Shown here piece after piece: positions 29,302 through 56,883 of a stretch of DNA of 64,000 bases. The stretch is from an uncultured virus (IMG/VR IMGVR_UViG_3300031787_000080). Lineage: Duplodnaviria > Heunggongvirae > Uroviricota > Caudoviricetes. Positions within the stretch are counted from its first letter, which is position 1, and each line of letters opens with the position of its first letter. The translations under genes and the position numbers were made by a program. Where the stretch lies: the IMG/VR virus record IMGVR_UViG_3300031787_000080, one strand, 5' to 3'. The notes below the pieces were generated by a model that made no database searches, had not been told where the DNA came from, and worked only from the letters and a program-made list of their open reading frames with translations.

Positions 29302-29369
29302 AACTTTTCAAAGGTGATCGCCGTATAACAAAAGAACATACACAAAGCAAAAGCTTTAAGGACACAATT

Positions 29370-29438
29370 ATGACTCGCCGATATCTTTCACTGCTAGGAC
29401 TCTTATCGCTTTCTCTTGAGAAAGCGGCGATTAGCTGA
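29370..29438 (+). CDS. Leu-rich leader peptide MTRRYLSLLGLLSLSLEKAAIS (putative attenuator)
   Basis: TAAGGA SD; 7 Leu codons; followed by terminator then tRNA-Leu genes. Confidence 0.8.
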   Translation: MTRRYLSLLGLLSLSLEKAAIS

Positions 29439-29459
29439 TAGATTTTGCGATCAGTGTTT

Positions 29460-29500
29460 AATCCCCGATTTCTCTCAAGGAGTCGGGGATTTTTGTTTTT
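29460..29500 (+). terminator. Intrinsic terminator (attenuator) upstream of tRNA-Leu pair
   Basis: AATCCCCGATTTC/GGAGTCGGGGATT stem plus TTTGTTTTT. Confidence 0.85.
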
Positions 29501-29511
29501 GCGTTTCACAT

Positions 29512-29596
29512 ACCGCTCTGGAGTAGCCAAACTTGCTACAGGCAACAGTCTTAGAAACTGTCTCTTTTCTGGGTTGGAATCCCAGGGGCGGTACCA
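29512..29596 (+). tRNA. tRNA-Leu(TAG), atypical
   Basis: ACCGCTC/GGGCGGT acceptor, ACAGT-CT TAG AA-ACTGT, CCA; enlarged D region, short variable loop. Confidence 0.75.
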
Positions 29597-29647
29597 ATAT
29601 TGACAATAGAATAGAGGAAAGAGAAAATAGATTTTCGAGTGATAAAT

Positions 29648-29734
29648 GCGGACGTGGCGGAATTGGTTTACGCGCTACTTTGAGATGGTAGTCCCCGATT
29701 GGGGGTGTGGGTTCGAGTCCCACCGTCCGCACCA
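29648..29734 (+). tRNA. tRNA-Leu(GAG)
   Basis: Full cloverleaf, long variable arm, CCA. Confidence 0.95.
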
Positions 29735-29802
29735 AAAATCCCTCAAATTTTCGAGCCGCGATTGTATATATGAATTATGAATGATTTTCATGGGAGTGCT
29801 CT

Positions 29803-30159
29803 TTGTCTAGTTGGCTGATCGGGTTGATTATCACGTTCTTTGTGATTTATTTTTTCTTCGGGAGTCAAAACCTTGATGATGAAGAAGAAGATTTAGAGTA
29901 CTTACATTCTTGGAAAGATGGAAATGGCTTTACGACTAAAGTAATCCAAATCGGTCACGATAAGATCGTTGTAGAAAATTTTAGCAGAAAGCGCGGGCGA
30001 AAAGTTCGGGTGTGGACTGTTGAAGAATGCGCCAAAGACGCAGGATGGTCAGTTGAAAAGATGAGAGATCATCTTGGCCTTCCCGATGAAAGCGCTTTAA
30101 AAGAAGTTGAAATGACTCTTGGCGAGTGGCTTCACGAAAAGAATCAACATCAAAGATAG
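29803..30159 (+). CDS. Membrane-anchored hypothetical protein, paralog family F
   Basis: Similar to 28954. Confidence 0.75.
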   Translation: MSSWLIGLIITFFVIYFFFGSQNLDDEEEDLEYLHSWKDGNGFTTKVIQIGHDKIVVENFSRKRGRKVRVWTVEECAKDAGWSVEKMRDHLGLPDESALKEVEMTLGEWLHEKNQHQR

Positions 30160-30213
30160 AACCGATCAGTAAAAAATCCCCTGTTTTCGTGGGGGATTTT
30201 TGATAGATAAAGC

Positions 30214-30624
30214 ATGGCAACACGAGGCTGGGAGCCCACAGACTACAATCCGAACATTATTCGTGATGTTTCTAATCGAACCATTGAAGAATTTGAAAAC
30301 GATATTCGATTTTCTCGTGACTGGGGCTTCGTACAAAGTTATGGCCTTGAAAGAGCTACTCAGCTTCTGGGTCGAGCCCCAGATACCCGAGCAGTTGAAT
30401 TCTTTAATGAGTTCATGTCTCAGTATTCCCGAGCCGTCGAGCTTATGGAACAGCTAGGCATCAAAAAGAAGATTCTGAAAAAATTCAAGCGATATCCGAT
30501 TGCTCCTTGTCTTTATGCTGATTTGAATGAAGAATGTAATGATGTATTGACGGGATCGAAAATCGGTGGAATTCCTGACCAGCGCCAAGCTGGAAGTGCG
30601 CTGTCTTCAAGGCAATATTGTTAG
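30214..30624 (+). CDS. Hypothetical protein
   Basis: After palindromic promoter. Confidence 0.65.
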   Translation: MATRGWEPTDYNPNIIRDVSNRTIEEFENDIRFSRDWGFVQSYGLERATQLLGRAPDTRAVEFFNEFMSQYSRAVELMEQLGIKKKILKKFKRYPIAPCLYADLNEECNDVLTGSKIGGIPDQRQAGSALSSRQYC

Positions 30625-31339
30625 TCGCATCAAGGCAGCTTGGCCCAAGGATTCAAATGGTAAATATATGATATTCGTTGGCCAAATCAAAGTGCCTGGA
30701 CACATCGTCGCTCCCTGGGATTATATCATGGGCGAGAAAATAGACAAGTATGGAAATTATGATCGACCTCTTAATGGGTTTAGCCACGGGCAGAACATTT
30801 TTGAACAAGAGCATACTTATTTAATTTTTCGCAGTGCGCATGCACCAAATTTTGGAGACATGTTCGATTGTGCGATGGTGCATTCTCGCTTCGATGCCAA
30901 TGAATCGGTAAAGGAAGATAAATATATTGAGGCTGTGAAAAAAGCTATTCCGCAGTATCGCCGAAGCAACATGGAAGACAATTGTCCAATTTGGAGTGAT
31001 CGGTGTCACACGCTAACTGATTACCGAGTTAGCATGACGCTTGATTTAATTCGCGACTTTGAATGGGCAGGTGGGTTTGAAGGCAATGTATTTGATTACA
31101 TAGATTCGTGGAGAGAACACTTCGGTTCTTATGGCACAATTCAAATTTTTGGCGATCCAAGATCACAACAGACCCCACAGCGATTTGCTGAAACACGCAC
31201 TGTTTACCGTCCTCGAATGATGCGCCCGTGGCTTGGAATGACAGACCTAAAGCACGATTACACTTGGCAATATAATTTTTGTCACGAAGGTTTTCTGAGT
31301 GAATCAATTATGGGCAAAGTTGATGGAAGCTGTACCTAA
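30566..31339 (+). CDS. Hypothetical protein
   Basis: 257-aa ORF, start uncertain. Confidence 0.6.
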   Translation: MEFLTSAKLEVRCLQGNIVSRIKAAWPKDSNGKYMIFVGQIKVPGHIVAPWDYIMGEKIDKYGNYDRPLNGFSHGQNIFEQEHTYLIFRSAHAPNFGDMFDCAMVHSRFDANESVKEDKYIEAVKKAIPQYRRSNMEDNCPIWSDRCHTLTDYRVSMTLDLIRDFEWAGGFEGNVFDYIDSWREHFGSYGTIQIFGDPRSQQTPQRFAETRTVYRPRMMRPWLGMTDLKHDYTWQYNFCHEGFLSESIMGKVDGSCT

Positions 31340-31383
31340 TTAAAAATCCCCTGTTTTTCATGGGGGATTTTGATATATAAGGC

Positions 31384-31785
31384 ATGGCTGATTATTACAC
31401 CCATTTTTCCTTTGTCGTTGACGTTAAGAATCGTGAACAAGCAGACGGTTTGAAGAAAATGCTCACCCAGGCCAAAAATGAAGAGCTAAATGAAGAAACT
31501 TTGTACACTCCTTGGAGTTGTGAAACTAAGGACGATTTAACTAGCTTTTGGTTTCACTCTGATGATTGTGGTCAGGTTGATCTTATTGTTGACATTTTGG
31601 CTAAATGGCAAGAAGACTTCAATTACGATCAGCCCATTTGTTTTGAGTGGGCGAATACTTGTAGTAAGCCCAAACTGGATGCTTTTGGTGGTGGGTCAGT
31701 TCTGATTTACAAGGGCGAAGCTCATTACACGAACACTTTTGATTGGTTGACTAAAAAGAAAGCCGAACTTGGAATCGTTGACTGA
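31384..31785 (+). CDS. Hypothetical phage protein
   Basis: MADYYT.FS...WA.TCSKP.LD.FGGG. Confidence 0.75.
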   Translation: MADYYTHFSFVVDVKNREQADGLKKMLTQAKNEELNEETLYTPWSCETKDDLTSFWFHSDDCGQVDLIVDILAKWQEDFNYDQPICFEWANTCSKPKLDAFGGGSVLIYKGEAHYTNTFDWLTKKKAELGIVD

Positions 31786-31830
31786 CTAAAAAATCCCCTG
31801 TTTTTCAATAGGGGATTTGATATATCAATT

Positions 31831-31967
31831 GTGCCAAGAAGCACTTGAAGTGCAGTCTACGGATATGCCTTATTAGGGCATGTGATTACTGCGTAGGAAG
31901 GACAGGGTGTAATGAAGTACGGTCGCGACGAAAAGTTACATCGGGTTAAAATCCCAACTTGGCACCA
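31831..31967 (+). ncRNA. tRNA-like structured RNA ending in CCA
   Basis: GTGCCAAG/CTTGGCAC terminal stem, T-arm-like GGG TTAAAAT CCC, own promoter. Confidence 0.6.
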
Positions 31968-31989
31968 AATTGAAAAATGAGAATCTAAT

Positions 31990-32290
31990 CGGGGCGTGGC
32001 GAAATGGCAGACGCAGGGGACTTATAAAATGAGCACTTGTTTGTGAAAGCTGCAAGTGAATGCAATCAAATTCGGTGAAACCTTAACAGTTAGGCTGATG
32101 GCAATACCGAGCCAAGCTAACTCAAAACAGAGTTAGAAGGTGTAGAGACTAGATGGTTGCTGCCTAAGTCGAAAGATATGGCAAAGGTATAGTCCAGACC
32201 ACAAAATCCTTTGGGATCGTAGTGAAAGCTATAGTGGTATGAAAATCCCTTAGTAGCAATACTGTGTGGGTTCGAGTCCCACCGCCCCGA
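31990..32290 (+). tRNA. tRNA-Leu(TAA) interrupted by a group I intron
   Basis: Exons 31990-32013 and 32242-32290 join to give GGGGA-CT TAA AA-TCCCT arm, T arm and CGGGGCG/CGCCCCG acceptor. Confidence 0.92.
32014..32241 (+). mobile_element. Group I intron (228 nt, no ORF)
   Basis: Inserted after anticodon U, ends in G; core elements AAATTCGGTGAA (P), AATACCGAGC (Q), GTAGAGACTAGA (R), AGGTATAGTCCA (S). Confidence 0.9.
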
Positions 32291-32340
32291 TTAGGTTATA
32301 TATTGATTACTAATGCGCTTTGTGTGCTTTTAGTATAAGA

Positions 32341-32838
32341 ATGTTTGTGTCACGTTTGCAAAAATATACCCTAGAGGAGATAAAAGAAATAATATCTAAA
32401 TCAAAATCTTATGCTGAAGTAATTCGATCTATTGGTTTAATTCCTGCTGGTGGAAATTACAAAACATTGCAAAGTTTTGTACATGAATACCGAATTGATA
32501 CTTCGCATTTTCTGGGCTCAGCTTGGGGGCGAGGAAACCAATTGGATTATCTCCACAATAGCAATAGAAAATCATTAGAAGATGTTTTTTCGGGAAAAGT
32601 AGCTTATAAATCAAGCCATAAATTAAGGCTTCGGCTGATTAAAGAAGGATATTTTGAGCATAAATGCTATAAATGTGGACTAAAAGAGTGGCAAGGACAC
32701 GAAATACCCTTGGAATTAGAGCATATAAATGGAGATCATTGTGATAACAGTCTCGAAAACCTCATTATTCTTTGCCCCAACTGTCATGCTCAAACAGAAA
32801 CTTATGCTGGTAAAAACAAAAAAAGACGATTAGGTTAA
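32341..32838 (+). CDS. HNH homing endonuclease
   Basis: C..CG...W....PLELEHINGD..DN.LENL..LCPNCHAQT. Confidence 0.9.
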   Translation: MFVSRLQKYTLEEIKEIISKSKSYAEVIRSIGLIPAGGNYKTLQSFVHEYRIDTSHFLGSAWGRGNQLDYLHNSNRKSLEDVFSGKVAYKSSHKLRLRLIKEGYFEHKCYKCGLKEWQGHEIPLELEHINGDHCDNSLENLIILCPNCHAQTETYAGKNKKRRLG

Positions 32839-32878
32839 AAATCCCCTAAATTTTTCTTCAGATTTCGATAAATTAATT

Positions 32879-33127
32879 ATGATCGATGACAAAAGAACTT
32901 CAGAATGTGTTATTCTTCATATTGAAGTTGATGTTGAGTACCCTGAAGGAATGCATCTTGGGGTTGTTCTATCTGGTTTGCAAAACAATGCGAAAATTGC
33001 CATTACTGAACTTGATGACGATAGGGTCCAAATCACAGCAAATAGAATCACAGCAGTTGAACATTTTGTTACTGGAGAAATTTTAGAAGATTACCAGTGG
33101 AAAAAGAAAAAAGAATCTCCTCGATAA
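32879..33127 (+). CDS. Hypothetical protein
   Basis: After promoter variant. Confidence 0.6.
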   Translation: MIDDKRTSECVILHIEVDVEYPEGMHLGVVLSGLQNNAKIAITELDDDRVQITANRITAVEHFVTGEILEDYQWKKKKESPR

Positions 33128-33131
33128 ATGT

Positions 33132-33215
33132 GCCGCAGTGGTGGAATGGTAGACACGGCAAGCTCAAACCTTGCTGCCGAAAGGCGTGAAGGTTCGAATC
33201 CTTTTTGCGGCACCA
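33132..33215 (+). tRNA. tRNA-Leu(CAA)
   Basis: Full cloverleaf, long variable arm, CCA. Confidence 0.95.
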
Positions 33216-33283
33216 TATTTTCACATATGCATGACTATGTGAAAAATCCCCTGTTTTCTCTTTCTTGATCGGATATATAAATC

Positions 33284-33913
33284 ATGTTTAATATGAATGT
33301 GATTCTTTTCAAGAACAATTCTATCGAAGAAAATTATCTTTTCTCTGGTGAAAATTCTGAAGATGTTGCGAAAAAGGCAGAAAGCAAAATGATTGAAATT
33401 CTTCGTTCAGAAATGTCTAACTTTGACGAATACACGTCGGAAGATATTGACAACATTTTGGAAGATGGATATGAATCCTTTGGAAATGGAGCGGTTTTTA
33501 TTACGTGGCCTGACATTGTTGATGTTGATAAGGAGATTGATTCGGAAAATAATTTTGTTTTTCGTGGCACTATTGAATACTCCATCCCGCACATTGATTC
33601 AGAAGTAGTTCGCCTGTGCGCCGCACTAAATGAGCCCATTGAAGTTGGTCTACAGTGGGAATCACATTATCGCAATGGTAATGGCTACGCTGTCCGCGTT
33701 AATGCAGATATCTACTCAGTTGATGAAGAACTTGCTGCCGAGGAATTTAGTGATTATTGGGATTCAGGATGCGATGATGAAATTCGCTATTCTGGGGACT
33801 ACAATTGGTCCCTTTTGGGCAAAGACTATAAAGAGGCCATCAGTATTCTCCAAAAGTATGTTGATGAGCAAAAGCGTCGTTACCCAGGCTACGATATTAG
33901 AATTAGCAAATAA
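33284..33913 (+). CDS. Hypothetical acidic protein
   Basis: After promoter; C-terminus related to 23074. Confidence 0.7.
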   Translation: MFNMNVILFKNNSIEENYLFSGENSEDVAKKAESKMIEILRSEMSNFDEYTSEDIDNILEDGYESFGNGAVFITWPDIVDVDKEIDSENNFVFRGTIEYSIPHIDSEVVRLCAALNEPIEVGLQWESHYRNGNGYAVRVNADIYSVDEELAAEEFSDYWDSGCDDEIRYSGDYNWSLLGKDYKEAISILQKYVDEQKRRYPGYDIRISK

Positions 33914-33950
33914 TCCCCTGTTTTCTCTTTCTTGATCGAATATATAAATC

Positions 33951-34373
33951 ATGACAATTGACGGAAAGTTGCTTAAAAGACTAATGTGTAGCAACGAGGC
34001 TTTTGATATTTTGGGTGACATCGTAAGTTGGAATTCTGGAGGTTGCTGGATTCTTGCCGAAGCTCTGCGCCGATTCATTGGCGATCAGGCTACTATCGTG
34101 GCCATCGCTGATGATCGCTGCCAACACCAACATATTGTCGTGAAAGTGGGGAATTTGTATTATGACGCCGACGGAGAGTCGAACGAAGGGCGTCTGCTGC
34201 ATCGCTGGATGGATTATGAACGACTCCGTAATCCTCGAATCGTAGGTTTTGATCCAGAACTGGCCGCTGATTTAGAAATTCCTTGCGAAGAAGAACTTGT
34301 AACGCAAGTCTATAACTTGCTGAACTCGCGTCTGAAAAATCCCCTTTTTTCACAATCGGGAGCGCATATATAA
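33951..34373 (+). CDS. Hypothetical protein (GGC..LA.AL...H.....YDADG)
   Basis: After promoter; possible Cys-His-Asp triad. Confidence 0.7.
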   Translation: MTIDGKLLKRLMCSNEAFDILGDIVSWNSGGCWILAEALRRFIGDQATIVAIADDRCQHQHIVVKVGNLYYDADGESNEGRLLHRWMDYERLRNPRIVGFDPELAADLEIPCEEELVTQVYNLLNSRLKNPLFSQSGAHI

Positions 34374-34376
34374 ATC

Positions 34377-34583
34377 ATGGACCCATTTCTTTTTTATTCT
34401 ACCTATTTTATCTTGGGACTTGGTTTTATGTTCGCATTGATGGCAATCGGAGCGCATCACTATACCAATGGCCCATCTCGTGAACAAGAACAAAAACAAA
34501 GAATCAAGTTTATTATTCTATCAGTGCTTTTAATAGCTAGTGCAATTTTTCTGGGCCGTTATGCTGCGGGTCTGCTTTTTTGA
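34377..34583 (+). CDS. Small two-TM membrane protein
   Basis: Two hydrophobic segments. Confidence 0.65.
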   Translation: MDPFLFYSTYFILGLGFMFALMAIGAHHYTNGPSREQEQKQRIKFIILSVLLIASAIFLGRYAAGLLF

Positions 34584-34649
34584 TTTCATTCTCTTGAAAT
34601 GGTTTTAAAAAATCCCCTTTTTTCAGAAAACCAAATCAATATAAAAAAT

Positions 34650-34970
34650 ATGCGAATTCGACCGCAATCCGACCCGAACAAGGAATATCTCATCGACTTT
34701 TACTACCCGTATGGGAAGCAAGGACACAAGAAGAAGGGCACCAAGACTGTCTGCACTATCTCTGTCGGCCCTGTGGGTAGTCTCGACAAGGACAAGACCG
34801 AAGTCTCGACCACTACCGTTCGCCGACATAGTACCGATCAGGACAATCTTGTCGTAGCTCGTAATTATGCACTGGCCAAGGCCCTATCCCCGATTGAAGC
34901 TAGTGTCCGACAAGAGATTTGGGAACAGGCTCCGATTCGACGAGCAGACATTTCCCTGGAACTCGACTAA
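34650..34970 (+). CDS. Hypothetical protein
   Basis: ATG after promoter. Confidence 0.7.
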   Translation: MRIRPQSDPNKEYLIDFYYPYGKQGHKKKGTKTVCTISVGPVGSLDKDKTEVSTTTVRRHSTDQDNLVVARNYALAKALSPIEASVRQEIWEQAPIRRADISLELD

Positions 34971-34982
34971 ACTCCAAAAACA

Positions 34983-35018
34983 TTCTCATTGAGGGAGAAT
35001 TTAATCCCTCAATGAGAA
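34983..35018. terminator. Perfect 14-bp inverted repeat hairpin
   Basis: TTCTCATTGAGGGA/TCCCTCAATGAGAA followed by A-run. Confidence 0.6.
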
Positions 35019-35097
35019 AAAACAAAAAACTGCTAACAAAAAGCAGGTGATCGTCGTATAATAAGAGAAGAAACTGAAAAGCACAAAGAGCTATATT

Positions 35098-35220
35098 ATG
35101 AATCATCTCTTATCGACGACAATATGTGGAACAACAGGAACCTCAACAAGAGGAATCCTTTCCCTTGGCGTTATCGGCAAGGATAGTGATTCTGATTCAG
35201 GAGAACCCATCGAATCGTAG
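35098..35220 (+). CDS. Ser/Thr/Gly-rich leader peptide (40 aa, putative attenuator)
   Basis: MNHLLSTTICGTTGTSTRGILSLGVIGKDSDSDSGEPIES; followed by terminator and tRNA-Gly/Ser/Thr. Confidence 0.78.
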   Translation: MNHLLSTTICGTTGTSTRGILSLGVIGKDSDSDSGEPIES

Positions 35221-35240
35221 CTTTACTGTGATTACAGAAC

Positions 35241-35281
35241 AAAGAGGCTCGATTCGATAAGATCGAGCCTCTTTTCTTTTT
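35241..35281 (+). terminator. Intrinsic terminator (attenuator) upstream of tRNA-Gly/Ser/Thr
   Basis: AAAGAGGCTCGAT/ATCGAGCCTCTTT stem plus TCTTTTT. Confidence 0.88.
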
Positions 35282-35410
35282 AGATATGATGTCTGGGAAG
35301 AGAAAGATCGAATATTGAAAATTTCATACAGGTATAGATATAAAAGTGTTAGGGGGTGTTGGATCGATCTTTGATCGCAGGCCTCACCCCCTTGATCGAG
35401 ACACATTTTC

Positions 35411-35484
35411 GCGAGATTGGTATATGGGTTGTGCCCTAGCCTTCCAAGCTAGAGAAAAGGGTTCGAATCCCTTATCTCGCTCCA
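35411..35484 (+). tRNA. tRNA-Gly(TCC)
   Basis: Cloverleaf, CTAGC-CT TCC AA-GCTAG, U73, CCA. Confidence 0.93.
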
Positions 35485-35535
35485 ATTTAAGACACATTTC
35501 TTTGTGCTGCCAATGGGCAGCTTTCAAAAGAAAAC

Positions 35536-35622
35536 GGATGGGTGACAGAGCGATCTATTGTAGCGGTCTTGAAAACCGCCGTGCCAAAAGCACCGTGGGT
35601 TTGAATCCCACCCCATCCTCCA
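35536..35622 (+). tRNA. tRNA-Ser(TGA)
   Basis: Cloverleaf, long variable arm, CCA. Confidence 0.93.
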
Positions 35623-35720
35623 TTTTGTAACAAAATCATAAAATTCAAAGCAGGTGTAGCTCAGTGGTAGAGCGCCCGCCGCGAAGGTTGATGGTTGCAA
35701 TATCGATAAATAGATTATGT

Positions 35721-36137
35721 ATGGCAATAACAAAATACAAAGGAGCCGTCGGGCTAACTAATGTAATGGCCTGTCTTGTCAATCAAAAAGCAAAAATCTT
35801 TGTTCCAATAGACGAAGACTGTCAATATGACCTGGTGGTAGATTATCAAAATTATCTTTACAGAGTGCAAGTTAAATATGCTGAGGCAAAAAATGGCAAG
35901 ATCGTTGTAAAGACGCGCTCAACGAATAACTATTGTGAAATTCGTTATACTAAAGATCATTTTGACGTGATTGCTGTTTGGGACAATGTTGGCAAAAAAG
36001 CATATTTTATTTCATCGAATTTAATCACAGAAGGAATGACGGAAATGACCTTGAGATTAGATGCACCAAAAAACAATCAAACTAAAAACATAAGATTGGC
36101 TCGTAATTATGAGCAATTTAATGCTGCGGTCGCATAG
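35721..36137 (+). CDS. PD-(D/E)XK endonuclease, I-Ssp6803I/group I intron-associated type
   Basis: KG..G, P......YDLVVD......RVQVK, Y....FD..AVW, LR...PKNNQ...IR.A..Y. Confidence 0.85.
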   Translation: MAITKYKGAVGLTNVMACLVNQKAKIFVPIDEDCQYDLVVDYQNYLYRVQVKYAEAKNGKIVVKTRSTNNYCEIRYTKDHFDVIAVWDNVGKKAYFISSNLITEGMTEMTLRLDAPKNNQTKNIRLARNYEQFNAAVA

Positions 36138-36205
36138 TGGTCGATTGCACCTCTCTTGTAAAGAGGAACTCCACACCGTGGGTTCGAATCCCACCCGTAG
36201 CTCCA
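36123..36205 (+). tRNA. tRNA-Thr(TGT)
   Basis: GCTGCGG/CCGTAGC, CCTCT-CT TGT AA-AGAGG, CCA; 11-nt variable region. Confidence 0.9.
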
Positions 36206-36320
36206 TTTTTCGCACATATGTGTCAGGGGTTCGAATCCCCTCTCCTGCTTTGAGTTGAGTGATGATATCCGATCATAAAAAATCCCCCTTTTTCTCAATA
36301 GTGATCGGATATATAAAGTA

Positions 36321-36917
36321 TTGCTGTGAGCTAAATCAATTGACACAGCATGATGAAACCAAAATCATCTAAAAACAATAAGGTGCTCCATATACGTCTG
36401 GGAAAGATAAATTAGACGTGGACACACTGTGATGTGGACTAATCACAGCGCACTGGGGCATGTGTGCAAGCCCGAAAAGCCTATCTTTACTGATATAGTT
36501 AAAGAGAAAGAGCAGAGAGTTAAGGCTTAAAATAAACTCCATGCGTTCGTAAGGATGAACTCAAAGACGAGTTCAGTTATGACTAGGATACGAGAGGAGG
36601 GAGGCAATGAGTTTCTCTCCTCTCCCCGACAAAGCGATTTCCGACTGCTCATCGGAGAAGTGATCTAGTAAAACACTCAGAAAAACACTAGCGTAGGAAA
36701 TGCGTTAATCCCTGATTTTTTATCGGTTTTTAGAGACAAAAAACTGTTCGTATAGGGCTTGCGGTAAGCCTCTTGTTTTAGCTAGGTGATCCTGTATGTA
36801 AAAACCAAGCGGATGGAACAAATCAATTTGTTTTCGCGAGCAAATGATCCATTGACTTTGGGGAACAGCGTAAGAACGTTTCGCCATGAGGCTTTGAGCA
36901 AAGTCTCGTTCCCCAAA
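36321..36917 (+). ncRNA. Large (~600 nt) structured non-coding RNA candidate
   Basis: Own promoter, no plus-strand ORF of 60 aa or more, more than ten hairpins, abuts tRNA-Asp. Confidence 0.7.
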
Positions 36918-36931
36918 AATAAAAAGATTCT

Positions 36932-37008
36932 GGGTATGTAGTTCAGTTGGTTAGAGCACCTGCCTGTCACGCAGGAAGTCGCGAGTTCAAGTCTCGTCAT
37001 ATCCGCCA
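36932..37008 (+). tRNA. tRNA-Asp(GTC)
   Basis: Canonical cloverleaf, G73, CCA. Confidence 0.95.
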
Positions 37009-37028
37009 AAATTTCCAAAGGAGACAAA

Positions 37029-37244
37029 ATGAATAGACAAATAGAAAGCCTCGATCATCTGGTGTCTCTTGGGCTACTGACATCATATGAGTTTGTAAAC
37101 GTGTCAGCCAATAACATTGAGGGCGAGATTTCAGAACATCATAATTCTGATCGATTGAAACTCATATTCCCGAATGGGTTGGAAGTGAAGATCACTGCGA
37201 TCACAACAGGCATGGAAGAAGATGCTCTTTTGAGATTGGAATAA
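37029..37244 (+). CDS. Hypothetical protein
   Basis: AAGGAG SD. Confidence 0.7.
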   Translation: MNRQIESLDHLVSLGLLTSYEFVNVSANNIEGEISEHHNSDRLKLIFPNGLEVKITAITTGMEEDALLRLE

Positions 37245-37284
37245 AAATCCCCCATTTTCAGAAGAGTGATCGGATATAAGAAGT

Positions 37285-37542
37285 ATGGAAGCAAAGATTT
37301 ATCGCCAGGCTCATCCCCAGGATGAAAATCGTCTTTCTGTTGCCGCTGATATTTTTGCACGGCGGCACCGCCTTGAGATTTCTCACCACAGCGATTTGAA
37401 CTACACTGATCTAACTGGGGCAAACAATTTGGCTTTCCTTTGGGAACGCGCAAAGTGCCGAGCATTACTTATGCCCTTGAAGATCAGTGAAAAGCATCAA
37501 ATTTGGCTTGAGAACGACAAAATTGTTCTGACTCCTTACTGA
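37285..37542 (+). CDS. Hypothetical protein
   Basis: After promoter. Confidence 0.65.
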   Translation: MEAKIYRQAHPQDENRLSVAADIFARRHRLEISHHSDLNYTDLTGANNLAFLWERAKCRALLMPLKISEKHQIWLENDKIVLTPY

Positions 37543-37592
37543 CAATGGTCCCGCTTGGGAACACTATCGGCAAGACCAATCGTAGAACAAGT

Positions 37593-37883
37593 ATGAATAG
37601 TTCAGACAACATTCTTCAGGAACAAGAAATCGAAAGAATTCTCACGTCATTTATCCAATCGCGAAATCGACAAGAAAGAGAATGCTCATTGGAGGAATGC
37701 CAAGGGATTATTAATTGGGCAGCTGAAGTTATTGTGAATTACACAGCCTTGCAGCTTTTATTAAAAGGTCATGCGGAAATCGAAGATTTTGATGGTGATG
37801 ATGTTCGTCTCACCACTCCCGAAAACATTCAGTTTCATACTCCGCTGATGAATCAAATCGCGAGGCAAATTGAAGAACTTTAA
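37593..37883 (+). CDS. Hypothetical protein
   Basis: ORF in gene run, start uncertain. Confidence 0.6.
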   Translation: MNSSDNILQEQEIERILTSFIQSRNRQERECSLEECQGIINWAAEVIVNYTALQLLLKGHAEIEDFDGDDVRLTTPENIQFHTPLMNQIARQIEEL

Positions 37884-38080
37884 TAATTGATTTTCCAACG
37901 AAGCACCTTGGCAAGAGCTTTTTCTAACAGTTTTGGCTCCATGCCAAGAAGGACACGTGCCCTGAAACCACGTGTTAATGCTGAAAATATGGGGACAATC
38001 GGGAGAGACCGATAAAAAATCCCTCTTTTTTGGGGAATGAAATTCATATAAGAAATGTGAAGTGAAAGAAAAGTAAAAAG

Positions 38081-38221
38081 TTCGCCCGAATTAAATATCG
38101 GAACAATCCTTTCCTGAAGAGGTTTAGCACTAATTAGGATTAAAGACACTTGGAGTGGGAACTCTGTTTGAAAGAAGTAACATATACCCCGCAATGGTAA
38201 CAGACCTACCACCGAGGCGAA
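38081..38221 (+). ncRNA. Structured RNA candidate, family X copy 1
   Basis: Ends identical to 62331-62493; TTCGCC/GGCGAA closing stem. Confidence 0.65.
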
Positions 38222-38439
38222 AAATTGCTAGATAAATGGAAATCTAGCTCAACGAGCACAGACACCTTGTAGCTAAAAGCGTCGCATGTGAGAGCCATTG
38301 CGGAAGTGGTGTGACAATCGGGAGAGACCGATAAAAAATCCCCTTTTTTCGAGGGATAAAACAATATAAAAGATATCAGTGCAGTGCGGAGTGATAGCTA
38401 CACGAAGCACCTGGAAAAGCTAACCAGAGACACTGTGAT

Positions 38440-38524
38440 GCTACGGTGGTGTATAGAGCACAGCAGAACGAATTGACCTCGGTCATGCAGGGACGCAGGA
38501 GGCGACTTCGCTCGCCCCGTAGCT
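38440..38524 (+). ncRNA. tRNA-like element without a recognisable anticodon arm
   Basis: GCTACGG/CCGTAGC 7-bp stem plus GGCGA/TCGCC T-like arm. Confidence 0.5.
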
Positions 38525-38534
38525 ATAATTTTTC

Positions 38535-38622
38535 GGAGAGTAAACCAGTCAAGGATTGGGGCATCCTGGAAAGATGATCGGATGTGCGAACATCTACGGG
38601 GCAGGTCCGTTGCTCTCCTCCA
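38535..38622 (+). tRNA. tRNA-Ser(GGA), 8/4 structure
   Basis: GGAGAGTA/TGCTCTCC 8 bp, ACGG/CCGT 4-bp T stem, 6-bp D stem, CT GGA AA loop, CCA. Confidence 0.8.
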
Positions 38623-38639
38623 TTTTCATTCAAAAGAAC

Positions 38640-38725
38640 GGAACGTAATCCCGACAGGTGCTGGGCGATGTTTGCTAAACAATCGGCTTTGTAAAAGAAG
38701 TGGGGTTCGAGTCCTCTGCGTTCCT
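38640..38725 (+). tRNA. tRNA-Ser(GCT), 8/4 structure
   Basis: GGAACGTA/TGCGTTCC 8 bp, GGGG TTCGAGT CCTC, TT GCT AA loop; no encoded CCA. Confidence 0.78.
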
Positions 38726-38770
38726 AAAAAAATCCCCCTTTCTTTTTGTTCCTGGAGTGATATATAAAAC

Positions 38771-38971
38771 ATGAAAGATTTTGAAGACGTGGTTTTTGGA
38801 AGTTCCGATGAATGGAATGGGGCAGCTGGTATTGTGCCTGAGGACAAGTTTTACGTTTCTTATCCCGATTGTTCCATTCAGATTTGCGACACCGAAGGAG
38901 AGTGTGCGGCAATTCAAAGAGAATTCCGTGTTATGCACCGCCGAAACCCGATCACTGGCGAAGCAACTTAA
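38771..38971 (+). CDS. Hypothetical protein
   Basis: After promoter. Confidence 0.65.
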   Translation: MKDFEDVVFGSSDEWNGAAGIVPEDKFYVSYPDCSIQICDTEGECAAIQREFRVMHRRNPITGEAT

Positions 38972-43545: not shown

Positions 43546-43755
43546 ATGAACGATTCAAATCGCTTTGAAGTAATCAGCTCAGGTCCATACAATTTGAAGA
43601 TTGTTGCGCAAACTATGACTGAGTGCATGGATATGATTCGACGAAACTCTGACATGGTGGACTTCTGGGCAGTTTTAGACCATTCTACGAAAACCGTGGT
43701 CGCTTTAAGCCAGGACTGGAAAGTCTTGCCAACATTCAAACCCGCAGTAAACTAA
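43546..43755 (+). CDS. Hypothetical protein
   Basis: After promoter; coupled to PARP gene. Confidence 0.6.
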   Translation: MNDSNRFEVISSGPYNLKIVAQTMTECMDMIRRNSDMVDFWAVLDHSTKTVVALSQDWKVLPTFKPAVN

Positions 43756-45035
43756 TGAAAGAATCTCGATATATTTTCGCTGACGTGAGCGCGAATAATA
43801 ACAAGTTTTGGAACATCAAAATTGAACCAAACTTCACGGTCGTAACTTCGTGGGGCCGAGTCGGAGATAACGCACAATCAAAGGAATTTCCCCACGGAAG
43901 CCTTGCAGACGCAGAAAAGTTCTTCGATAGGAAATGCCGCGAAAAGGAACGAAAAGGATACGTTAAGCAAAGAGTTCTGATCGGAGAATACACCACGCAA
44001 GATAACACTTCGCTTGCGTCAGTTGCCAAACAACAAATCAACACAAATAGCCCCGAATTAGATGAACTAATTGCCTTCCTGACTAAAGCAAACGTTCATA
44101 ACATTCTAACAGCAACAGCTATGGAATACGACACTTCAAAGGGAGTTTTTACAACGCCCCTCGGAGTTGTCACGAACGATGCCATTCAAGATGCACGAAG
44201 CATCTTGGCATCAATGGGCCTTCTTGTGCATAATCAAGATTGGAACTCCCCCGATTGGAATTCGCTCTTGTCTATGTACCTTACTGCCATCCCTCAAAAG
44301 ATTGGACGCAGAAAGCCAGACCCAAGAGAACTCTTCCCGAGCCTTCAAGCTATTCAAAATCAAAGCAAAATTCTTGACGACCTGGAAGCATCATTCCAAT
44401 CTGTCGTGAGCGCACCACTGACGCAGAAAGGGGATGACACAAACACGCCACAAGTGTTTGATGTGAAATTGCATCTTGTAGACGATCAAAGCATAATTCG
44501 ACGAATCAAAAACAAATACGACTCCACACGAAAGACCATGCACGCATCATATCATCTGGGGGTGAAACGAGTCTTTTCTGTCGAAATTAACGCGATGGCA
44601 AAGGCATATGGTGATCGGGGAAAGAACGTCGGCAACGTGATGGAACTCTGGCATGGGACACGAGCGGGGAACCTTTTGAGCATCCTTAAAGGCGGACTGC
44701 AAGTCCCACCCGCATCGAGCCCTCATGTGACGGGGAGAATGTTCGGGGATGGATTGTATTTTTCAGATCAGTCCACGAAAAGCCTCAATTATGCCTATGG
44801 AGCAGCACCAGGACAAAGAGGAGGAATTGAATCGTCCACGTTCATGTTTCTCGCAGATGTAGCAATGGGACGCCCATTTGTCCCAACGTCCTATACACGA
44901 CCGTCAAAGTACCCCGTGCAAGGACATGATTCAATATTTGCAAAAGCAGGACAATCAGGCGTACACAATAATGAAATGATCGTATACACCACCGATCAAT
45001 GCAACCTCACCTACCTGGTTGAATTCGGAAACTAA
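43755..45035 (+). CDS. WGR-domain poly(ADP-ribose) polymerase-like protein
   Basis: NNNKFW, WGRVG, EK..KGY; regulatory-like Y.T.IP; catalytic LWHGT, G.MFG.GLYFSD...KS.NY, NNE.IVY. Confidence 0.9.
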   Translation: MKESRYIFADVSANNNKFWNIKIEPNFTVVTSWGRVGDNAQSKEFPHGSLADAEKFFDRKCREKERKGYVKQRVLIGEYTTQDNTSLASVAKQQINTNSPELDELIAFLTKANVHNILTATAMEYDTSKGVFTTPLGVVTNDAIQDARSILASMGLLVHNQDWNSPDWNSLLSMYLTAIPQKIGRRKPDPRELFPSLQAIQNQSKILDDLEASFQSVVSAPLTQKGDDTNTPQVFDVKLHLVDDQSIIRRIKNKYDSTRKTMHASYHLGVKRVFSVEINAMAKAYGDRGKNVGNVMELWHGTRAGNLLSILKGGLQVPPASSPHVTGRMFGDGLYFSDQSTKSLNYAYGAAPGQRGGIESSTFMFLADVAMGRPFVPTSYTRPSKYPVQGHDSIFAKAGQSGVHNNEMIVYTTDQCNLTYLVEFGN

Positions 45036-50612: not shown

Positions 50613-51509
50613 ATGAGTAGAGTAAAGAGAGTTATTGATAATGGTCTGGTATCGAAAAACTCAGTGCCAAAGCACTTCCCCGATTCGATTCAATACGAGA
50701 CGATCATGGGAAGTGTGGCCTACGGAGTGTCTTCTGATACGTCGGATATGGATATTTATGGATTTTGTATCCCGCCCAAGCACATTGTCTTTCCTCACTT
50801 AGCGGGACATATCCCTGGCTTTGGTCAACAGCCTGAGAAATTCGAGCAATGGTCGGTGCATCATATCAAAGATGAAGAAAAAAATACCGAGTACGATTTT
50901 TGCATTTACAATATCGTCAAGTATTTTAGTTTGGTTATGGAAAACAATCCCAACATGGTGGATTCTCTTTTCACTCCACAAAACGCGATTTTGCACTGCT
51001 CTCCAATCGCTCAAATGGTGCGTGACGAACGTCATATCTTCTTGCATAAGGGAGCGTGGCACAAGTTCAAGGGCTATGCCTACTCGCAGATGCACAAAAT
51101 TCGATCAAAGGAGGCTCCGCAAGGCAAGCGAAAAGAGCTGGTGGAACAGTTTGGATTCGACGTGAAGTTTGCTTATCATGTTGTAAGATTGATTGACGAA
51201 GTTGAGCAAATTCTTGTTGAGGGCACTCTTGATCTTCAAAGAAATCGAGAACAGCTTAAATCTATTCGGAGAGGTGAATGGACTTTAGAGGAAATCGAGG
51301 AATACTTTACTCGTCGAGAAAAAGAACTTGAGCTGGCTTATGCTAACTCAAAGCTGCCTCACACGCCCGATGAAAAGCGAATCCGCCAGCTTTTGATGAA
51401 TTGCCTTGAGCATCATTACGGAAACCTATCAGACGCCGTAGTGGATGTTGACGCGGCCACGAGAACACTTCAGCAAGTTGCGCATCTAATTCGACAAGGG
51501 GGATTCTAA
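50613..51509 (+). CDS. Nucleotidyltransferase (Pol-beta superfamily, NrdC.11/RlaP-like)
   Basis: GS.AYG.....SD.DI.G, NPN, F.GYA.SQ, FD.KFAYH..RL, L..IR.G. Confidence 0.85.
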   Translation: MSRVKRVIDNGLVSKNSVPKHFPDSIQYETIMGSVAYGVSSDTSDMDIYGFCIPPKHIVFPHLAGHIPGFGQQPEKFEQWSVHHIKDEEKNTEYDFCIYNIVKYFSLVMENNPNMVDSLFTPQNAILHCSPIAQMVRDERHIFLHKGAWHKFKGYAYSQMHKIRSKEAPQGKRKELVEQFGFDVKFAYHVVRLIDEVEQILVEGTLDLQRNREQLKSIRRGEWTLEEIEEYFTRREKELELAYANSKLPHTPDEKRIRQLLMNCLEHHYGNLSDAVVDVDAATRTLQQVAHLIRQGGF

Positions 51510-54334: not shown

Positions 54335-54550
54335 ATGAACACCAAGCAAAATCAGGTCGCAGATGACATTTATAATCGGCTTTCCAGTTCCGCGCCTGGG
54401 TTTTATCGATATTGGTCTGATACGGTTGACCGATCAGTGGCCCAAGCACTAATCAAAAAGGGACCATTTTTCAGTTACGGCAATTCTTGGCGATTCAAGG
54501 CCGAAAGTCTCGGGGCTGGAATGTATCGTGTCAAGATCATTGAAGCCTAG
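54335..54550 (+). CDS. Hypothetical protein
   Basis: After promoter variant. Confidence 0.6.
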   Translation: MNTKQNQVADDIYNRLSSSAPGFYRYWSDTVDRSVAQALIKKGPFFSYGNSWRFKAESLGAGMYRVKIIEA

Positions 54551-54621
54551 TCCCGATCAGGCCATCTTCATAAAAATCCCTTATTTTTATCGTTTCGATT
54601 CGATATAAAAAGGGAGGCTAA

Positions 54622-55074
54622 ATGATTACCCTTTTCAAGTTCGAGACCGAAGATGACGGCACGATTATCATTCCGATGGAGAAAATCGGAGTCACTATCA
54701 AGGACCTACAAGATGCCTTCAAGGAGGCAAAAGAACACGCCCAAGACGAATATGATGTAGAGCTGACCAAAGACACGATTTTCACAGTCGAAGAAGTCCA
54801 CGGCCTGAAAGATTTTCTTGAGAAATACACTCTAATCGAGCGTCCGACGGCGAAGGCTGGCAAACCGTTCTCTAAAGCCGTTTTTGACCCTGATTTGCAT
54901 ACCCTTCCCGAAGTTGCAGACCAGAACCAAGTCTGGACCTGGACCGATTGTGATGATGGCGGAAGTTATCTGATTCAAGGATACCATCATGCCAATCGCT
55001 TGGGCTATATCTTTACTGAAAACAAAGATGGAGAACCAGTGCCGATTGATGGAAACTCCTACTTTGTAGACTAG
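54622..55074 (+). CDS. Hypothetical protein
   Basis: GGGAGG SD; VWT.....G.H..NRLGY..T. Confidence 0.7.
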   Translation: MITLFKFETEDDGTIIIPMEKIGVTIKDLQDAFKEAKEHAQDEYDVELTKDTIFTVEEVHGLKDFLEKYTLIERPTAKAGKPFSKAVFDPDLHTLPEVADQNQVWTWTDCDDGGSYLIQGYHHANRLGYIFTENKDGEPVPIDGNSYFVD

Positions 55075-55194
55075 GTGACTGGGAACAAGAAAGGGGGAAG
55101 TAACTCCCTCTTTCTTTATGACTTTCCGTGATTATGCGCCACGATCATTAAAAATCCCCTATATCTTATATTCCAATCGGATATATAAGATATA

Positions 55195-55365
55195 ATGAAA
55201 ACCAAACATGTTTTTCGAGTTTACCCCAAGAATGCAACATCTTCCGAGGATGCTTTGGTAATTGAGAAAACCATAAGCCCGAAATCTGTCCTTCGAGTAA
55301 TGGGAAACCTTCTTGGCAAGTATAATGCTTCAGAAGTGGCTTTATTGAAATCCGAGGACAAATAA
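55195..55365 (+). CDS. Small hypothetical protein (56 aa)
   Basis: ATG after promoter. Confidence 0.55.
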   Translation: MKTKHVFRVYPKNATSSEDALVIEKTISPKSVLRVMGNLLGKYNASEVALLKSEDK

Positions 55366-55442
55366 GACTTTTTTAACAAAAAGTCCCAAAATCATAGGAC
55401 GATTTTGTTTTTTGATCGTATAATAGATAAGGACACTTTATT

Positions 55443-55535
55443 ATGAAGACCCACACCACATCAAATACGAATATGGTCTTCACCCGACGCAATTCCGCGA
55501 CGGGCGTCCAACAACGCTGTCGGCGTTCCGCTTAA
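55443..55535 (+). CDS. Leader peptide MKTHTTSNTNMVFTRRNSATGVQQRCRRSA (putative attenuator)
   Basis: TATAAT and TAAGGA SD; QQRCRR matches the downstream Gln/Gln/Arg/Arg/Cys tRNAs. Confidence 0.75.
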   Translation: MKTHTTSNTNMVFTRRNSATGVQQRCRRSA

Positions 55536-55624
55536 GTCGGGCTGACACGTTACCACCTGCAAGTAACTTCTTTTTCGAAGAATTAGCCCGCTCTCTGAGC
55601 GAGACGTCGATTATCATCTCGTGC

Positions 55625-55698
55625 TCGGGGATCGTCTAGAGGCAGGACTCTGGTCTCTGGAACCAGAAGCGGTGGTTCGAATCCATCTCTCCGAGCCA
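55625..55698 (+). tRNA. tRNA-Gln(CTG)
   Basis: U1-A72, CTGGT-CT CTG GA-ACCAG, G73, CCA. Confidence 0.93.
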
Positions 55699-55705
55699 GC
55701 TTCAC

Positions 55706-55791
55706 TGGGTCTTAGGCGAATTGGTAGAGCCGCCTGTCTTTGGAACAGGACTCCTGAAAAGGTGGAGGTTCGAATCCTCCCGACCCAGCCA
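55706..55791 (+). tRNA. tRNA-Gln(TTG), long variable region
   Basis: CCTGT-CT TTG GA-ACAGG, T arm, G73, CCA. Confidence 0.85.
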
Positions 55792-55863
55792 ATTAAAGGC
55801 TTTATGCATTTTGAAAAAATAATTAAAAAAGGCTTTCTTAACAGAAGTACATAATTAAAACGA

Positions 55864-56649
55864 GTGATTCAAACTTCCAATAAGAAAACAAGAGTAAAGC
55901 GCAGTCGAATTTGGACGATGCCTAAAGACGAGTTCGCTCAACTAGTGGCCTCAAGTCAAACTTATGTCGAAATTCTCCGAGCCATTAACTACACCATACG
56001 AGGAGGAGCTTTTCGAATTTTAAAAGAACGAATTGCGACAGAAATGATCGACGATTCACATATATTAAAGAATGGAAGGCAAACCATTTATGCCCATAGA
56101 TTCAATACTCGGTCAGATGACGATATATTTTGCGAAAATTCTACATACAATAGTGGCCCTGCCCTGAAAAAGAGAATGATTAAGCTAGGCTTACCTGAAG
56201 AATGCACAAAATGTGGGCTTGGTGCAACATGGAATGATGAACCTCTATCTCTGCAAGTAGACCATATCAATGGGGTGCGCAACGATAACAGATTAGAGAA
56301 TTTGAGGCTTCTGTGCCCAAATTGTCATTCTCAAACCGAAAATTTTGCTGGCAGAAAGTTGAACGCAAAAAACAAATCATGTCCAGAATGCTGCGCTAAG
56401 ATCAGTGGATACCGTAAAGATCAGAGATGCCAATCTTGTGCCAATAAGATCAGGTCTAGAGAAATGCAACTAATATCAAAACCATCAAAAGACGAGCTTC
56501 AAGATATGTTGTGGAAAATGCCCGCGACTAGGATTGCTAAGATATACAATGTGTCCGATAAAACAGTTGGTAATTGGGCTAAATCCTACAAAATTGACAA
56601 ACCGAGCCGTGGACACTGGGTCAAAAAAAATACTCCCCCCCCCTTGTAG
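55864..56649 (+). CDS. HNH homing endonuclease with C-terminal Zn-finger/HTH
   Basis: C..CG....WN...L.LQVDHING...DNRLENLR.LCPNCHSQT; IAK.YNVSD..V..W. Confidence 0.9.
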   Translation: MIQTSNKKTRVKRSRIWTMPKDEFAQLVASSQTYVEILRAINYTIRGGAFRILKERIATEMIDDSHILKNGRQTIYAHRFNTRSDDDIFCENSTYNSGPALKKRMIKLGLPEECTKCGLGATWNDEPLSLQVDHINGVRNDNRLENLRLLCPNCHSQTENFAGRKLNAKNKSCPECCAKISGYRKDQRCQSCANKIRSREMQLISKPSKDELQDMLWKMPATRIAKIYNVSDKTVGNWAKSYKIDKPSRGHWVKKNTPPPL

Positions 56650-56715
56650 CTTAATGGATAGAGCGCAGCACTTCGGATGCTGATGTTATGGGTTCGAGTC
56701 CTATCGAGGGGGCCA
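56640..56715 (+). tRNA. tRNA-Arg(TCG)
   Basis: CAGCA-CT TCG GA-TGCTG, CCA. Confidence 0.93.
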
Positions 56716-56726
56716 AAATTTAAAAC

Positions 56727-56802
56727 ACGCCTGTAGCTCAGTGGATAGAGCATCAGCTTGCGGAGCTGAGGGTCGGAGGTTCGAACCCTCTCAGGCGTGC
56801 CA
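56727..56802 (+). tRNA. tRNA-Arg(GCG)
   Basis: TCAGC-TT GCG GA-GCTGA, CCA. Confidence 0.93.
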
Positions 56803-56808
56803 ATATAC

Positions 56809-56883
56809 GGCCACGTACCCAAATGGTTAAGGGCTCCCTCTGCAAAAGGGATGTTGCGAGTTCGATTCTCGCCGTGGCCTCCA
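56809..56883 (+). tRNA. tRNA-Cys(GCA)
   Basis: TCCCT-CT GCA AA-AGGGA, U73, CCA. Confidence 0.95.

Follow-up and report, generated by a model that had tools for sequence, protein, structure and literature searches.

The enterobacterial paradigm of leader-peptide attenuation is given by trpL, leuL, thrL, ilvL, hisL and pheL, which control amino-acid biosynthetic operons; a related case is the pheST attenuator (pheM leader), which controls the phenylalanyl-tRNA synthetase of E. coli. The T-box riboswitch binds uncharged tRNA through a specifier codon and needs no ribosome, and in the leaders of the mgtL and mgtP type (Salmonella mgtA and mgtCBR) codon stalling governs Rho-dependent termination or alternative stem-loops. 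Finally, the 6S RNA of lambda pR'-tR' arises where a promoter lies closely before a terminator, giving a short default RNA that is extended through Q antitermination. Here, we describe three short open reading frames (ORFs), named L1, L2 and L3, each standing in front of a tRNA gene cluster in a stretch of 64,000 nucleotides (nt) from an uncultured phage (IMG/VR record IMGVR_UViG_3300031787_000080); the whole of this 64-kb stretch is called the window. The role of phage tRNAs is debated, either as codon compensation or as replacement of tRNAs that host defences, or the phage, have destroyed, and their regulation is largely unstudied. Leader-peptide attenuation applied to phage tRNA genes is the best reading of these three units, and one that we hold with middling confidence; the in-silico models support it strongly for L1 and fairly for L2.

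Codon match between the leader ORFs and their tRNA clusters

A sequence-only reading of the window had proposed that the three ORFs are each enriched in the amino acids of the cluster that they precede. Their positions were confirmed (Table 1) and the enrichment held as well, with a marginal composition for L3. Specifically, among the 812 other ORFs of 18-50 amino acids (aa) in the window, the Leu content of L1 (7 of 21 residues) was reached by one, the Gly+Ser+Thr content of L2 (19 of 39) by five and, with Asp included (22 of 39), by one, while the Gln+Arg+Cys content of L3 (8 of 29) was reached by 47. When the leaders were scored in the same comparison against the amino-acid sets of the other clusters, they were unremarkable.

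The codons themselves were then compared with the anticodons downstream. The Leu codons of L1 are CTT, CTG, CTA, CTC, TTA, CTT and CTT. Codons 6-19 of L2 read S T T I C G T T G T S T R G, ten of them being cognate to tRNA-Gly(UCC), tRNA-Ser(UGA) and tRNA-Thr(UGU), and a second run reads D S D S D S G. Concerning L3, codons 23-28 (CAA CAA CGC TGT CGG CGT, encoding QQRCRR) are all cognate to the five downstream tRNAs, and CGA CGC also occur at codons 15-16. A scan of stop-free codon spans in six frames over the 64 kb, with standard wobble for the downstream anticodons, returned the six-of-six run of L3 as unique among 97,143 six-codon spans and the 10-of-14 run of L2 as unique among 69,607 spans. 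L1, with 6 of 14 cognate codons when the tRNA-like element described below is counted, was matched by 40 of the 69,607. The cognate triplets are concentrated in the frame of the ORF, with counts of 6 against 2 and 2 in the other two frames for L1, 13 against 2 and 2 for L2, and 8 against 4 and 4 for L3. A permutation pipeline, in which every tRNA-upstream region was scored against every tRNA set, covered 11 units in the window; the sum of the own-set scores was reached by 6 of 5000 permutations, and the own score was clearly above all foreign scores in exactly the three leader units. Run on Xanthomonas phage X1 (11 units; 1585 of 5000 permutations), Rhizobium phage RHph_I1_18 (3 units) and a distant relative (L114; 4 units), the pipeline found no match of this order; two loci with one and no tRNA (L111 and L112, respectively) were left out of this scoring. 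These control phages are few and unrelated, and codon-matched leaders may exist elsewhere.

In our assessment, chance is excluded for the codon match of L2 and L3 and unlikely for that of L1. That all three are spurious small ORFs which happen to resemble the tRNA sets behind them is an explanation that we disfavour and give very little weight. It can point to three cases from one genome that were picked by eye, to the marginal composition of L3 and to the fact that Leu richness is common in hydrophobic peptides. It would have to accommodate two runs that are the unique maxima of roughly 70,000-97,000 spans and stand no more than 260 nt from the right cluster, and none of the 18 control units in the other phages has a score as high as that of L2 or L3.

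Predicted folds and switches of the leader RNAs

All three leader RNAs fold far better than their shuffles (z = -5.0 for L1, -6.1 for L2 and -4.4 for L3), and the terminator/antiterminator alternatives that the earlier reading had seen in two leaders were recovered in L1 and L2. In L1, the ribosome-free fold is a long imperfect hairpin (29360-29459) that includes the Shine-Dalgarno-like GGACAC and the start codon, with a helix of 9 base pairs (bp) between 29406-29414 and 29419-29427 at its top. The terminator pairs 29460-29473 with 29478-29491 (14 bp) and is followed by a T run, whereas the antiterminator pairs 29459-29474 with 29418-29433 (14 bp in three helices) in a duplex of -14.4 kcal/mol, reached by 14 of 1000 shuffles. 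As modelled, the pairing is the textbook 1:2, 2:3, 3:4 attenuator arrangement. The switch was followed by folding the transcript up to the terminator loop with a ribosome footprint of 30 nt masked. The probability (P) that the 5' arm of the terminator is paired was 0.17 without a ribosome, about 0.8 with the A site anywhere in codons 2-12, five of them Leu (0.81 at Leu codons 6-12), and 0.14-0.33 with the A site from codon 13 to the stop, where it was 0.14. A switch of this size was reached by none of 300 dinucleotide shuffles of the stretch from the ORF to the terminator. The equilibrium probability of the finished L1 terminator was dropped as a readout; the terminator is so stable that this value stays near 0.62 wherever the ribosome is placed. 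Among the ten terminator-like sites on the + strand between 28000 and 47900, those of L1 and L2 have the longest stems (14 pairs each).

Behind the L1 terminator, the order is a tRNA-like element (UAG) and then tRNA-Leu(GAG). The former has a 7-bp acceptor stem, an encoded CCA and the anticodon loop CUUAGAA (UAG, of the Leu box), with an aberrant D arm and T loop; it scores 25 bits with the Rfam tRNA model (gathering 29) and is missed by ARAGORN at default settings. The "Leu/Leu" cluster of the earlier reading did not hold up, as tRNA-Leu(CAA) lies 3.4 kb off, behind several genes and four copies of the promoter-like motif AAAAATCCCC (30172, 31342, 31789 and 32837), and TTG, the codon of this tRNA, is absent from L1.

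For L2, the antiterminator pairs 35209-35224 with 35244-35258 (9 + 6 bp, -19.9 kcal/mol) and was reached by none of 1000 shuffles. In the full-length fold, segment 2 pairs with 35087-35094 and the terminator forms. If the translated part of the RNA is taken as unavailable, P for the terminator arm drops from 0.85, the value with the A site at or before 35194, to 0.22 once the A site lies between 35209 and the stop.

Under leader-peptide attenuation, the three ORFs would be translated sensors whose runs report the decoding speed of the codons served by the downstream tRNAs. In L1, with no ribosome or with a ribosome at the end of the ORF, 1:2 and 3:4 would form and RNA polymerase would stop at the terminator; a ribosome held on Leu codons 6-12 would free segment 2 to capture the 5' arm of the terminator, and transcription would continue into the tRNA-like element and tRNA-Leu. 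In L2, only a leading ribosome that arrives at the last four codons early enough to cover segment 2 would keep the antiterminator from forming, and a delay on Gly, Ser, Thr or Asp codons would give read-through into tRNA-Gly, tRNA-Ser and tRNA-Thr. L3 would carry the same kind of sensor run with a different output step. The outcome would be a negative feedback in which a scarce cognate tRNA leads to more tRNA transcription.

The third leader departs from this anatomy. The attenuator interpretation stands as real anatomy for L1 and as plausible for L2, while in L3 the terminator scan found no intrinsic terminator on the + strand, and strict attenuation is unsupported there because there is no terminator. 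The sole T run, at 55562-55569, was rejected as one, the stem before it having 5 bp with two G-C pairs. A long hairpin (55519-55611), which is not a terminator because it has no T run, has as its base the QQRCRR run at the 3' end of the ORF. When a ribosome occupies the run or the stop, the minimum-free-energy fold, a prediction made without shuffle control, pairs the 3' arm of this hairpin with the 5' leader and first bases of tRNA-Gln. No AAAAATCCCC occurs inside the L3 tRNA cluster, the next copy being at 56883. We infer that the output of L3 differs from that of the other two leaders, with Rho-dependent termination or control of the 5' processing or folding of tRNA-Gln as candidates.

L3 thus has the strongest run, six of six and unique in the window, yet no terminator, and its hairpin arm can re-pair with the tRNA when a ribosome covers the run or the stop. 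Both features would suit translated, codon-matched ORFs whose output is the processing, folding or stability of the tRNA precursors, or a peptide that acts as a readout or timer of tRNA function. We consider this unlikely, since a model of processing only has no need of the strong terminators with exclusive antiterminators in L1 and L2, the L3 fold lacks the shuffle control, and stalling would lower tRNA maturation, which is an odd logic.

Table 1. Features of the three leader units (positions in the window; 1 is its first letter).
Feature	Position	Strand	Description
Class-B box of L1	29315..29329	+	TGATCG-N3-TATAAC
TAAGGACAC of L1	29357..29365	+	Shine-Dalgarno-like AAGGA 7 nt before ATG
L1 leader ORF	29370..29438	+	22 aa, Leu-rich; 7 Leu in codons 6-16
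L1 segments 1 and 2	29406..29433	+	predicted fold; 29418-29433 can switch partner
L1 segments 3 and 4	29459..29501	+	intrinsic terminator plus T run
tRNA-like element	29512..29596	+	11 nt behind the T run of the L1 terminator
Sigma-70-like site	29600..29628	+	TTGACA-17-GAAAAT, 10 of 12 positions
tRNA-Leu(GAG)	29648..29734	+	found by ARAGORN and Rfam
Class-B box of L2	35048..35062	+	also CTAACA-18-TATAAT, 10 of 12 positions
L2 segment 1	35087..35094	+	5' untranslated region just before ATG; pairs with 35217-35224 in the full-length fold
L2 leader ORF	35098..35220	+	40 aa, rich in Gly, Ser and Thr
L2 segment 2	35209..35224	+	last four codons and stop; antiterminator partner 35244-35258
L2 terminator	35241..35283	+	35241-35254 with 35261-35274, 14 bp, T run
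L2 cluster	35411..36205	+	tRNA-Gly(TCC) 35411-35484, tRNA-Ser(TGA) 35536-35622, tRNA-Thr(TGT) 36123-36205
Class-B box of L3	55413..55424	+	from the TGATCG(N0-4)TATAAY scan
TAAGGACAC of L3	55428..55436	+	4 nt behind the -10 box
L3 leader ORF	55443..55535	+	30 aa, ends ..QQRCRRSA
L3 long hairpin	55519..55611	+	begins in the last L3 codons, ends 14 nt before tRNA-Gln
L3 cluster	55625..56883	+	tRNA-Gln(CTG), tRNA-Gln(TTG), HNH ORF, tRNA-Arg(TCG), tRNA-Arg(GCG), tRNA-Cys(GCA)

Promoter-like classes, transcripts and surroundings of the leaders

Two classes of promoter-like elements were distinguished. Class A is the motif AAAAATCCCC, with 61 copies in the window against 0.4 expected, 55 of them on the + strand. 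Typically, the motif is followed after about 20 nt by (GATCGG)ATATATAA and after another 3-5 nt by the ATG, and therefore most genes appear nearly without a 5' leader (examples at 1659, 9469, 33242 and 56883). Judged from the sequence, it would be a phage-specific promoter-like motif giving nearly leaderless mRNAs; some copies also form the 5' arm of a hairpin with GGGGATTTTT. Class B, TGATCG(N0-4)TATAAY, has the same core without AAAAATCCCC and occurs five times in the window against 0.11 expected (five were reached in none of 100 shuffles), three of these boxes preceding the leaders; a sixth copy lies just upstream of the window. The motif TAAGGACAC has two copies in the window, just 5' of the ATG of L1 and of L3 (at least two in 6 of 100 shuffles), and its AAGGA stands 9 nt before the ATG in L3. 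The copy in L3 follows the -10 box so closely (Table 1) that the predicted RNA begins with it or close to it. Thus, the class-B box before all three leaders and the TAAGGACAC before two of them are as had been read from the sequence. Internal genes of the window have Shine-Dalgarno sites of the AGGAGG type. All three leaders combine the rare class-B box with a 5' untranslated region, unlike most genes here.

An 86-kb stretch pieced together from overlapping loci around the window holds one extra class-B box and the same 15 tRNA genes, none further. In it, five of the six class-B boxes are followed by a strong hairpin and T run within about 50-215 nt. Such a layout, in which short transcripts would be made constitutively until antitermination sets in, would agree with a phage antitermination factor, or a cis RNA element, that overcomes the terminators in the manner of lambda Q, imposing a temporal control on the tRNA clusters and on the genes behind the other class-B cassettes, to which the ORFs would be irrelevant. 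This we regard as improbable: no antiterminator protein or conserved RNA element was identified, the promoter box and TAAGGACAC are all that the leader RNAs have in common, and both the codon matching and the ribosome-position switch of L1 are left unexplained.

Three of the class-B copies have no ORF (1555-1660, 2265-2385 and, in locus L049, about 2.1 kb upstream of the window). They are near-identical over about 35 nt and continue with 50-75 variable nt, a conserved G+C hairpin and a T run; the hairpin has a GCAA-type loop and a class-A promoter stands behind it.

Evidence at the RNA level comes from assembled contigs of four RNA-library runs, covering the stretch 28800-38800 and belonging to four coded studies that possibly form one campaign. 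The L2 leader is covered by a mismatch-free contig in all four runs (35096-35265, 35079-35332, 35082-35355 and 35121-35278). These contigs begin 17-20 nt behind the -10 box or later, and two run past the end of the terminator, by 49 and 72 nt. The contig ends at 35265 and 35278 lie near the terminator at differing positions and were not used as evidence of termination. The stretch is thus present and bridged in RNA libraries, as would be the case both for an abundant leader RNA and for read-through. No contig fell on the L1 leader or on the protein genes beside L2 in these libraries, which is no evidence either way.

A further explanation takes the class-B units as small structured RNAs of about 160-215 nt, or as 5' leaders of tRNA precursors that act as RNA, with incidental ORFs and with tRNAs arising by leakage through the terminators or from promoters of their own. 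The strong folds of the leaders (z from -4.4 to -6.1) point in this direction, as do five ANGGA-like motifs in L2, the contigs over the L2 leader in all four libraries, the short terminated RNAs that the three further class-B boxes give without ORFs, and a sigma-70-like site before tRNA-Leu. We nevertheless judge it unlikely, as it leaves unexplained why cognate triplets are concentrated in frame, most strongly in L2, and why the best codon spans of the 64 kb lie upstream of the matching tRNAs, an agreement that so few permutations reached.

Attenuation itself has to be weighed against a number of points that speak against it. We infer, rather than observe, translation of the ORFs, ribosome stalling and the regulatory outcome. 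L1, in which a Leu-rich stretch comes after RR, resembles a small hydrophobic peptide, a character that alone would explain its Leu content. Additionally, the sigma-70-like site lies between the tRNA-like element and tRNA-Leu(GAG) and is a possible independent promoter. Sites of this quality are near background (56 found against 38.8 +/- 7.6 expected), and it cannot serve the tRNA-like element at 29512, which leaves no promoter room. With respect to tRNA transcription from promoters downstream of the terminators, this is the candidate at L1, and no promoter match occurs at L2 between 35284 and 35410, within promoter rules that are partly known for this phage. L2 has no clear Shine-Dalgarno site, and with only the footprint masked its terminator arm is paired in every state (P 0.66-0.85); its modelled switch rests on the assumption that the translated region is unavailable (polysome) and is weaker than the case of L1. 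The RNA-library contigs carry no strand, true ends or levels and can merge transcripts, and the libraries can hold DNA. L3 lacks the intrinsic terminator. Neither a matched ORF nor a tRNA belongs to the other three class-B cassettes, and therefore promoter-plus-terminator units exist here for another reason. Finally, no close relative was found in GenBank phages, IMG/VR, metagenome contigs or species genomes, and therefore ORF conservation and codon/tRNA covariation offer no support, while the distant relative (rIIA 38% identical) has promoters of the TGnTAATAT type directly before its tRNAs and no leader ORFs.

The searches behind this last point were as follows. In GenBank phages, megablast with 29000-37500 gave tRNA-level matches only, and tblastn with two proteins of the window gave relatives of at most 55% identity. 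Protein scans of IMG/VR returned no relative, then one fragment of 38% identity and later one distant contig (L114), and a promoter-pattern scan of IMG/VR gave no match and then two chance matches. In the metagenome contigs (107 stretches), all matches to the leader regions (60 alignment rows) were 100% identical to the window; 67 of 108 loci match the window by megablast, and the remainder are single-site matches, taken as chance. The species genomes gave 25 single-site matches only, likewise taken as chance, and the L2 peptide found no candidate in the protein collection.

A more far-reaching version of attenuation is that this jumbo phage runs codon-resolved sense-and-respond circuits, in which each tRNA cluster would be gated by a leader ORF built from the codons that its tRNAs decode, and a shortfall would switch on only the matching tRNAs; we find it doubtful, although somewhat less so than the rivals above. 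Starvation could cause such a shortfall, as could an early mismatch between the phage and the tRNAs of its host or the cutting of host tRNAs by anticodon nucleases, and L3 would be the same sensor coupled to an output other than an intrinsic terminator. If attenuation of phage tRNA genes is true, it would be the first case known to us in which tRNA transcription is set by the decoding rate of the cognate codons, and classical attenuation, known for enzymes, would be extended to tRNAs. Other phages and bacteria can be searched for the corresponding signature, a run of matched codons before a tRNA cluster.

Concerning its wider context, the window derives from a large freshwater phage (GC 42%), and its sequence recurs with 100% identity in several records of metagenome contigs of up to 378,848 bases. 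ARAGORN and Rfam agree on 15 tRNA genes, which all lie on the + strand in the part from 29.6 to 56.9 kb. The encoded proteins include rIIA-like, nicotinate phosphoribosyltransferase (NAPRTase; 7479-8738), PARP-like with WGR and regulatory domains (43755-45035) and RlaP-type nucleotidyltransferase (50613-51509) products and homing endonucleases; the NAPRTase, PARP-like and RlaP-type genes among the tRNA genes form a set with an NAD / RNA-repair flavour. The HNH endonuclease ORF of the L3 cluster (55864-56649) overlaps the first bases of tRNA-Arg(TCG) (56640-56715). In the L2 cluster, a PD-(D/E)XK endonuclease ORF lies between tRNA-Ser(TGA) and tRNA-Thr(TGT). This ORF and the intact tRNA-Thr(TGT) are flanked by the parts of a split tRNA within 35650-36250, a 5' part (acceptor and D arm) from about 35650 on and, at about 36223-36250, a 3' part (T arm and acceptor) with a partial Rfam match of 19 bits. 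From its sequence, the arrangement resembles a tRNA gene that a mobile insertion has split.

Six remaining tRNAs stand in other contexts, and their upstream ORFs show no codon match. tRNA-Leu(CAA), tRNA-Thr(GGT), tRNA-Met and tRNA-Arg(TCT) start within about 20 nt behind the stop of the upstream ORF; at 33132, 39899, 41346, 42676 and 48582, several tRNAs are found 0-20 nt behind an ORF stop and are immediately followed by a class-A motif. tRNA-Lys lies directly behind a class-A-like promoter, which would place the start of its transcript at the mature 5' end or close to it. tRNA-Asp (36932) follows an abundant and apparently untranslated RNA region (36237-36931), covered without mismatches by the contigs 36237-36880, 36453-36805 and 36335-36811 at word depths of 53, 142 and 84 in three runs. 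A class-A motif at 36278 precedes it and the sole + strand ORF of at least 40 aa is 36786-36941; there was no Rfam match at E-values up to 1, and the fold has z = -3.1 (20 shuffles). It is a candidate for a large non-coding RNA of about 600 nt beside the tRNA genes. Another non-coding transcript may be present at 38062-38386, where all four RNA-library runs have contigs around a class-A motif (38334) with no ATG behind it. Finally, a group I intron match of 58 bits (gathering 50) lies at 32013-32216, with RNA-library contigs over 31840-32296.

Comparison with known leader systems

By analogy, the closest mechanisms are the leader attenuators of amino-acid operons and the pheST attenuator. The former share with the present leaders a codon-rich short ORF, the 1:2/2:3/3:4 segments, a terminator and a decision that depends on the position of the ribosome, and in thrL and ilvL several amino acids are read in one leader, as in L2 and L3. 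They differ in that the genes here are tRNA genes in a phage and not biosynthetic enzymes, and in the missing terminator of L3; moreover, the sensed quantity would here be of the same class as the product (decoding capacity), making the feedback direct. The Rfam leader families (Leu_leader, Thr_leader, Trp_leader, His_leader and others) gave no match at gathering score in the window, and the sole leader match of the E-value scans, to Thr_leader, reached 22.7 bits (gathering 55) and lay over the L2 terminator hairpin, on the wrong strand. The pheST system is alike in that a leader attenuates a translation component for the same amino acid, but its target is the protein gene of a bacterial synthetase and not tRNA genes. 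An attenuator-like leader before the tRNA-Phe genes of E. coli was considered as a precedent and was not borne out for pheV of E. coli K-12, where the 105-nt upstream spacer has a promoter-like TTGACG..TTTAAT and no leader ORF.

The T-box resembles the proposed mechanism in that transcription attenuation reads one specific tRNA and controls genes for that amino acid; its model had no match in the window in the Rfam gathering or E-value scans. Leaders of the mgtL and mgtP type are a possible model for L3, with a codon run at the end of the ORF, alternative hairpins and no intrinsic terminator, a comparison in which a rut site or Rho dependence is not judgeable from sequence. Lambda pR'-tR' fits the three class-B cassettes without ORFs; it differs in that no Q-like factor or binding element was identified here, and it makes no use of codon content.

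The full-text literature searched, which included PMC3082878 and had older subscription papers outside its scope, contained no description of leader-peptide control of tRNA genes, and to that extent it agrees with the sequence-only reading, which knew of none for phage tRNA genes. What is known, then, is leader-peptide attenuation as such, and what would be new is its use on tRNA genes in a phage, a verdict that we see as evenly balanced.

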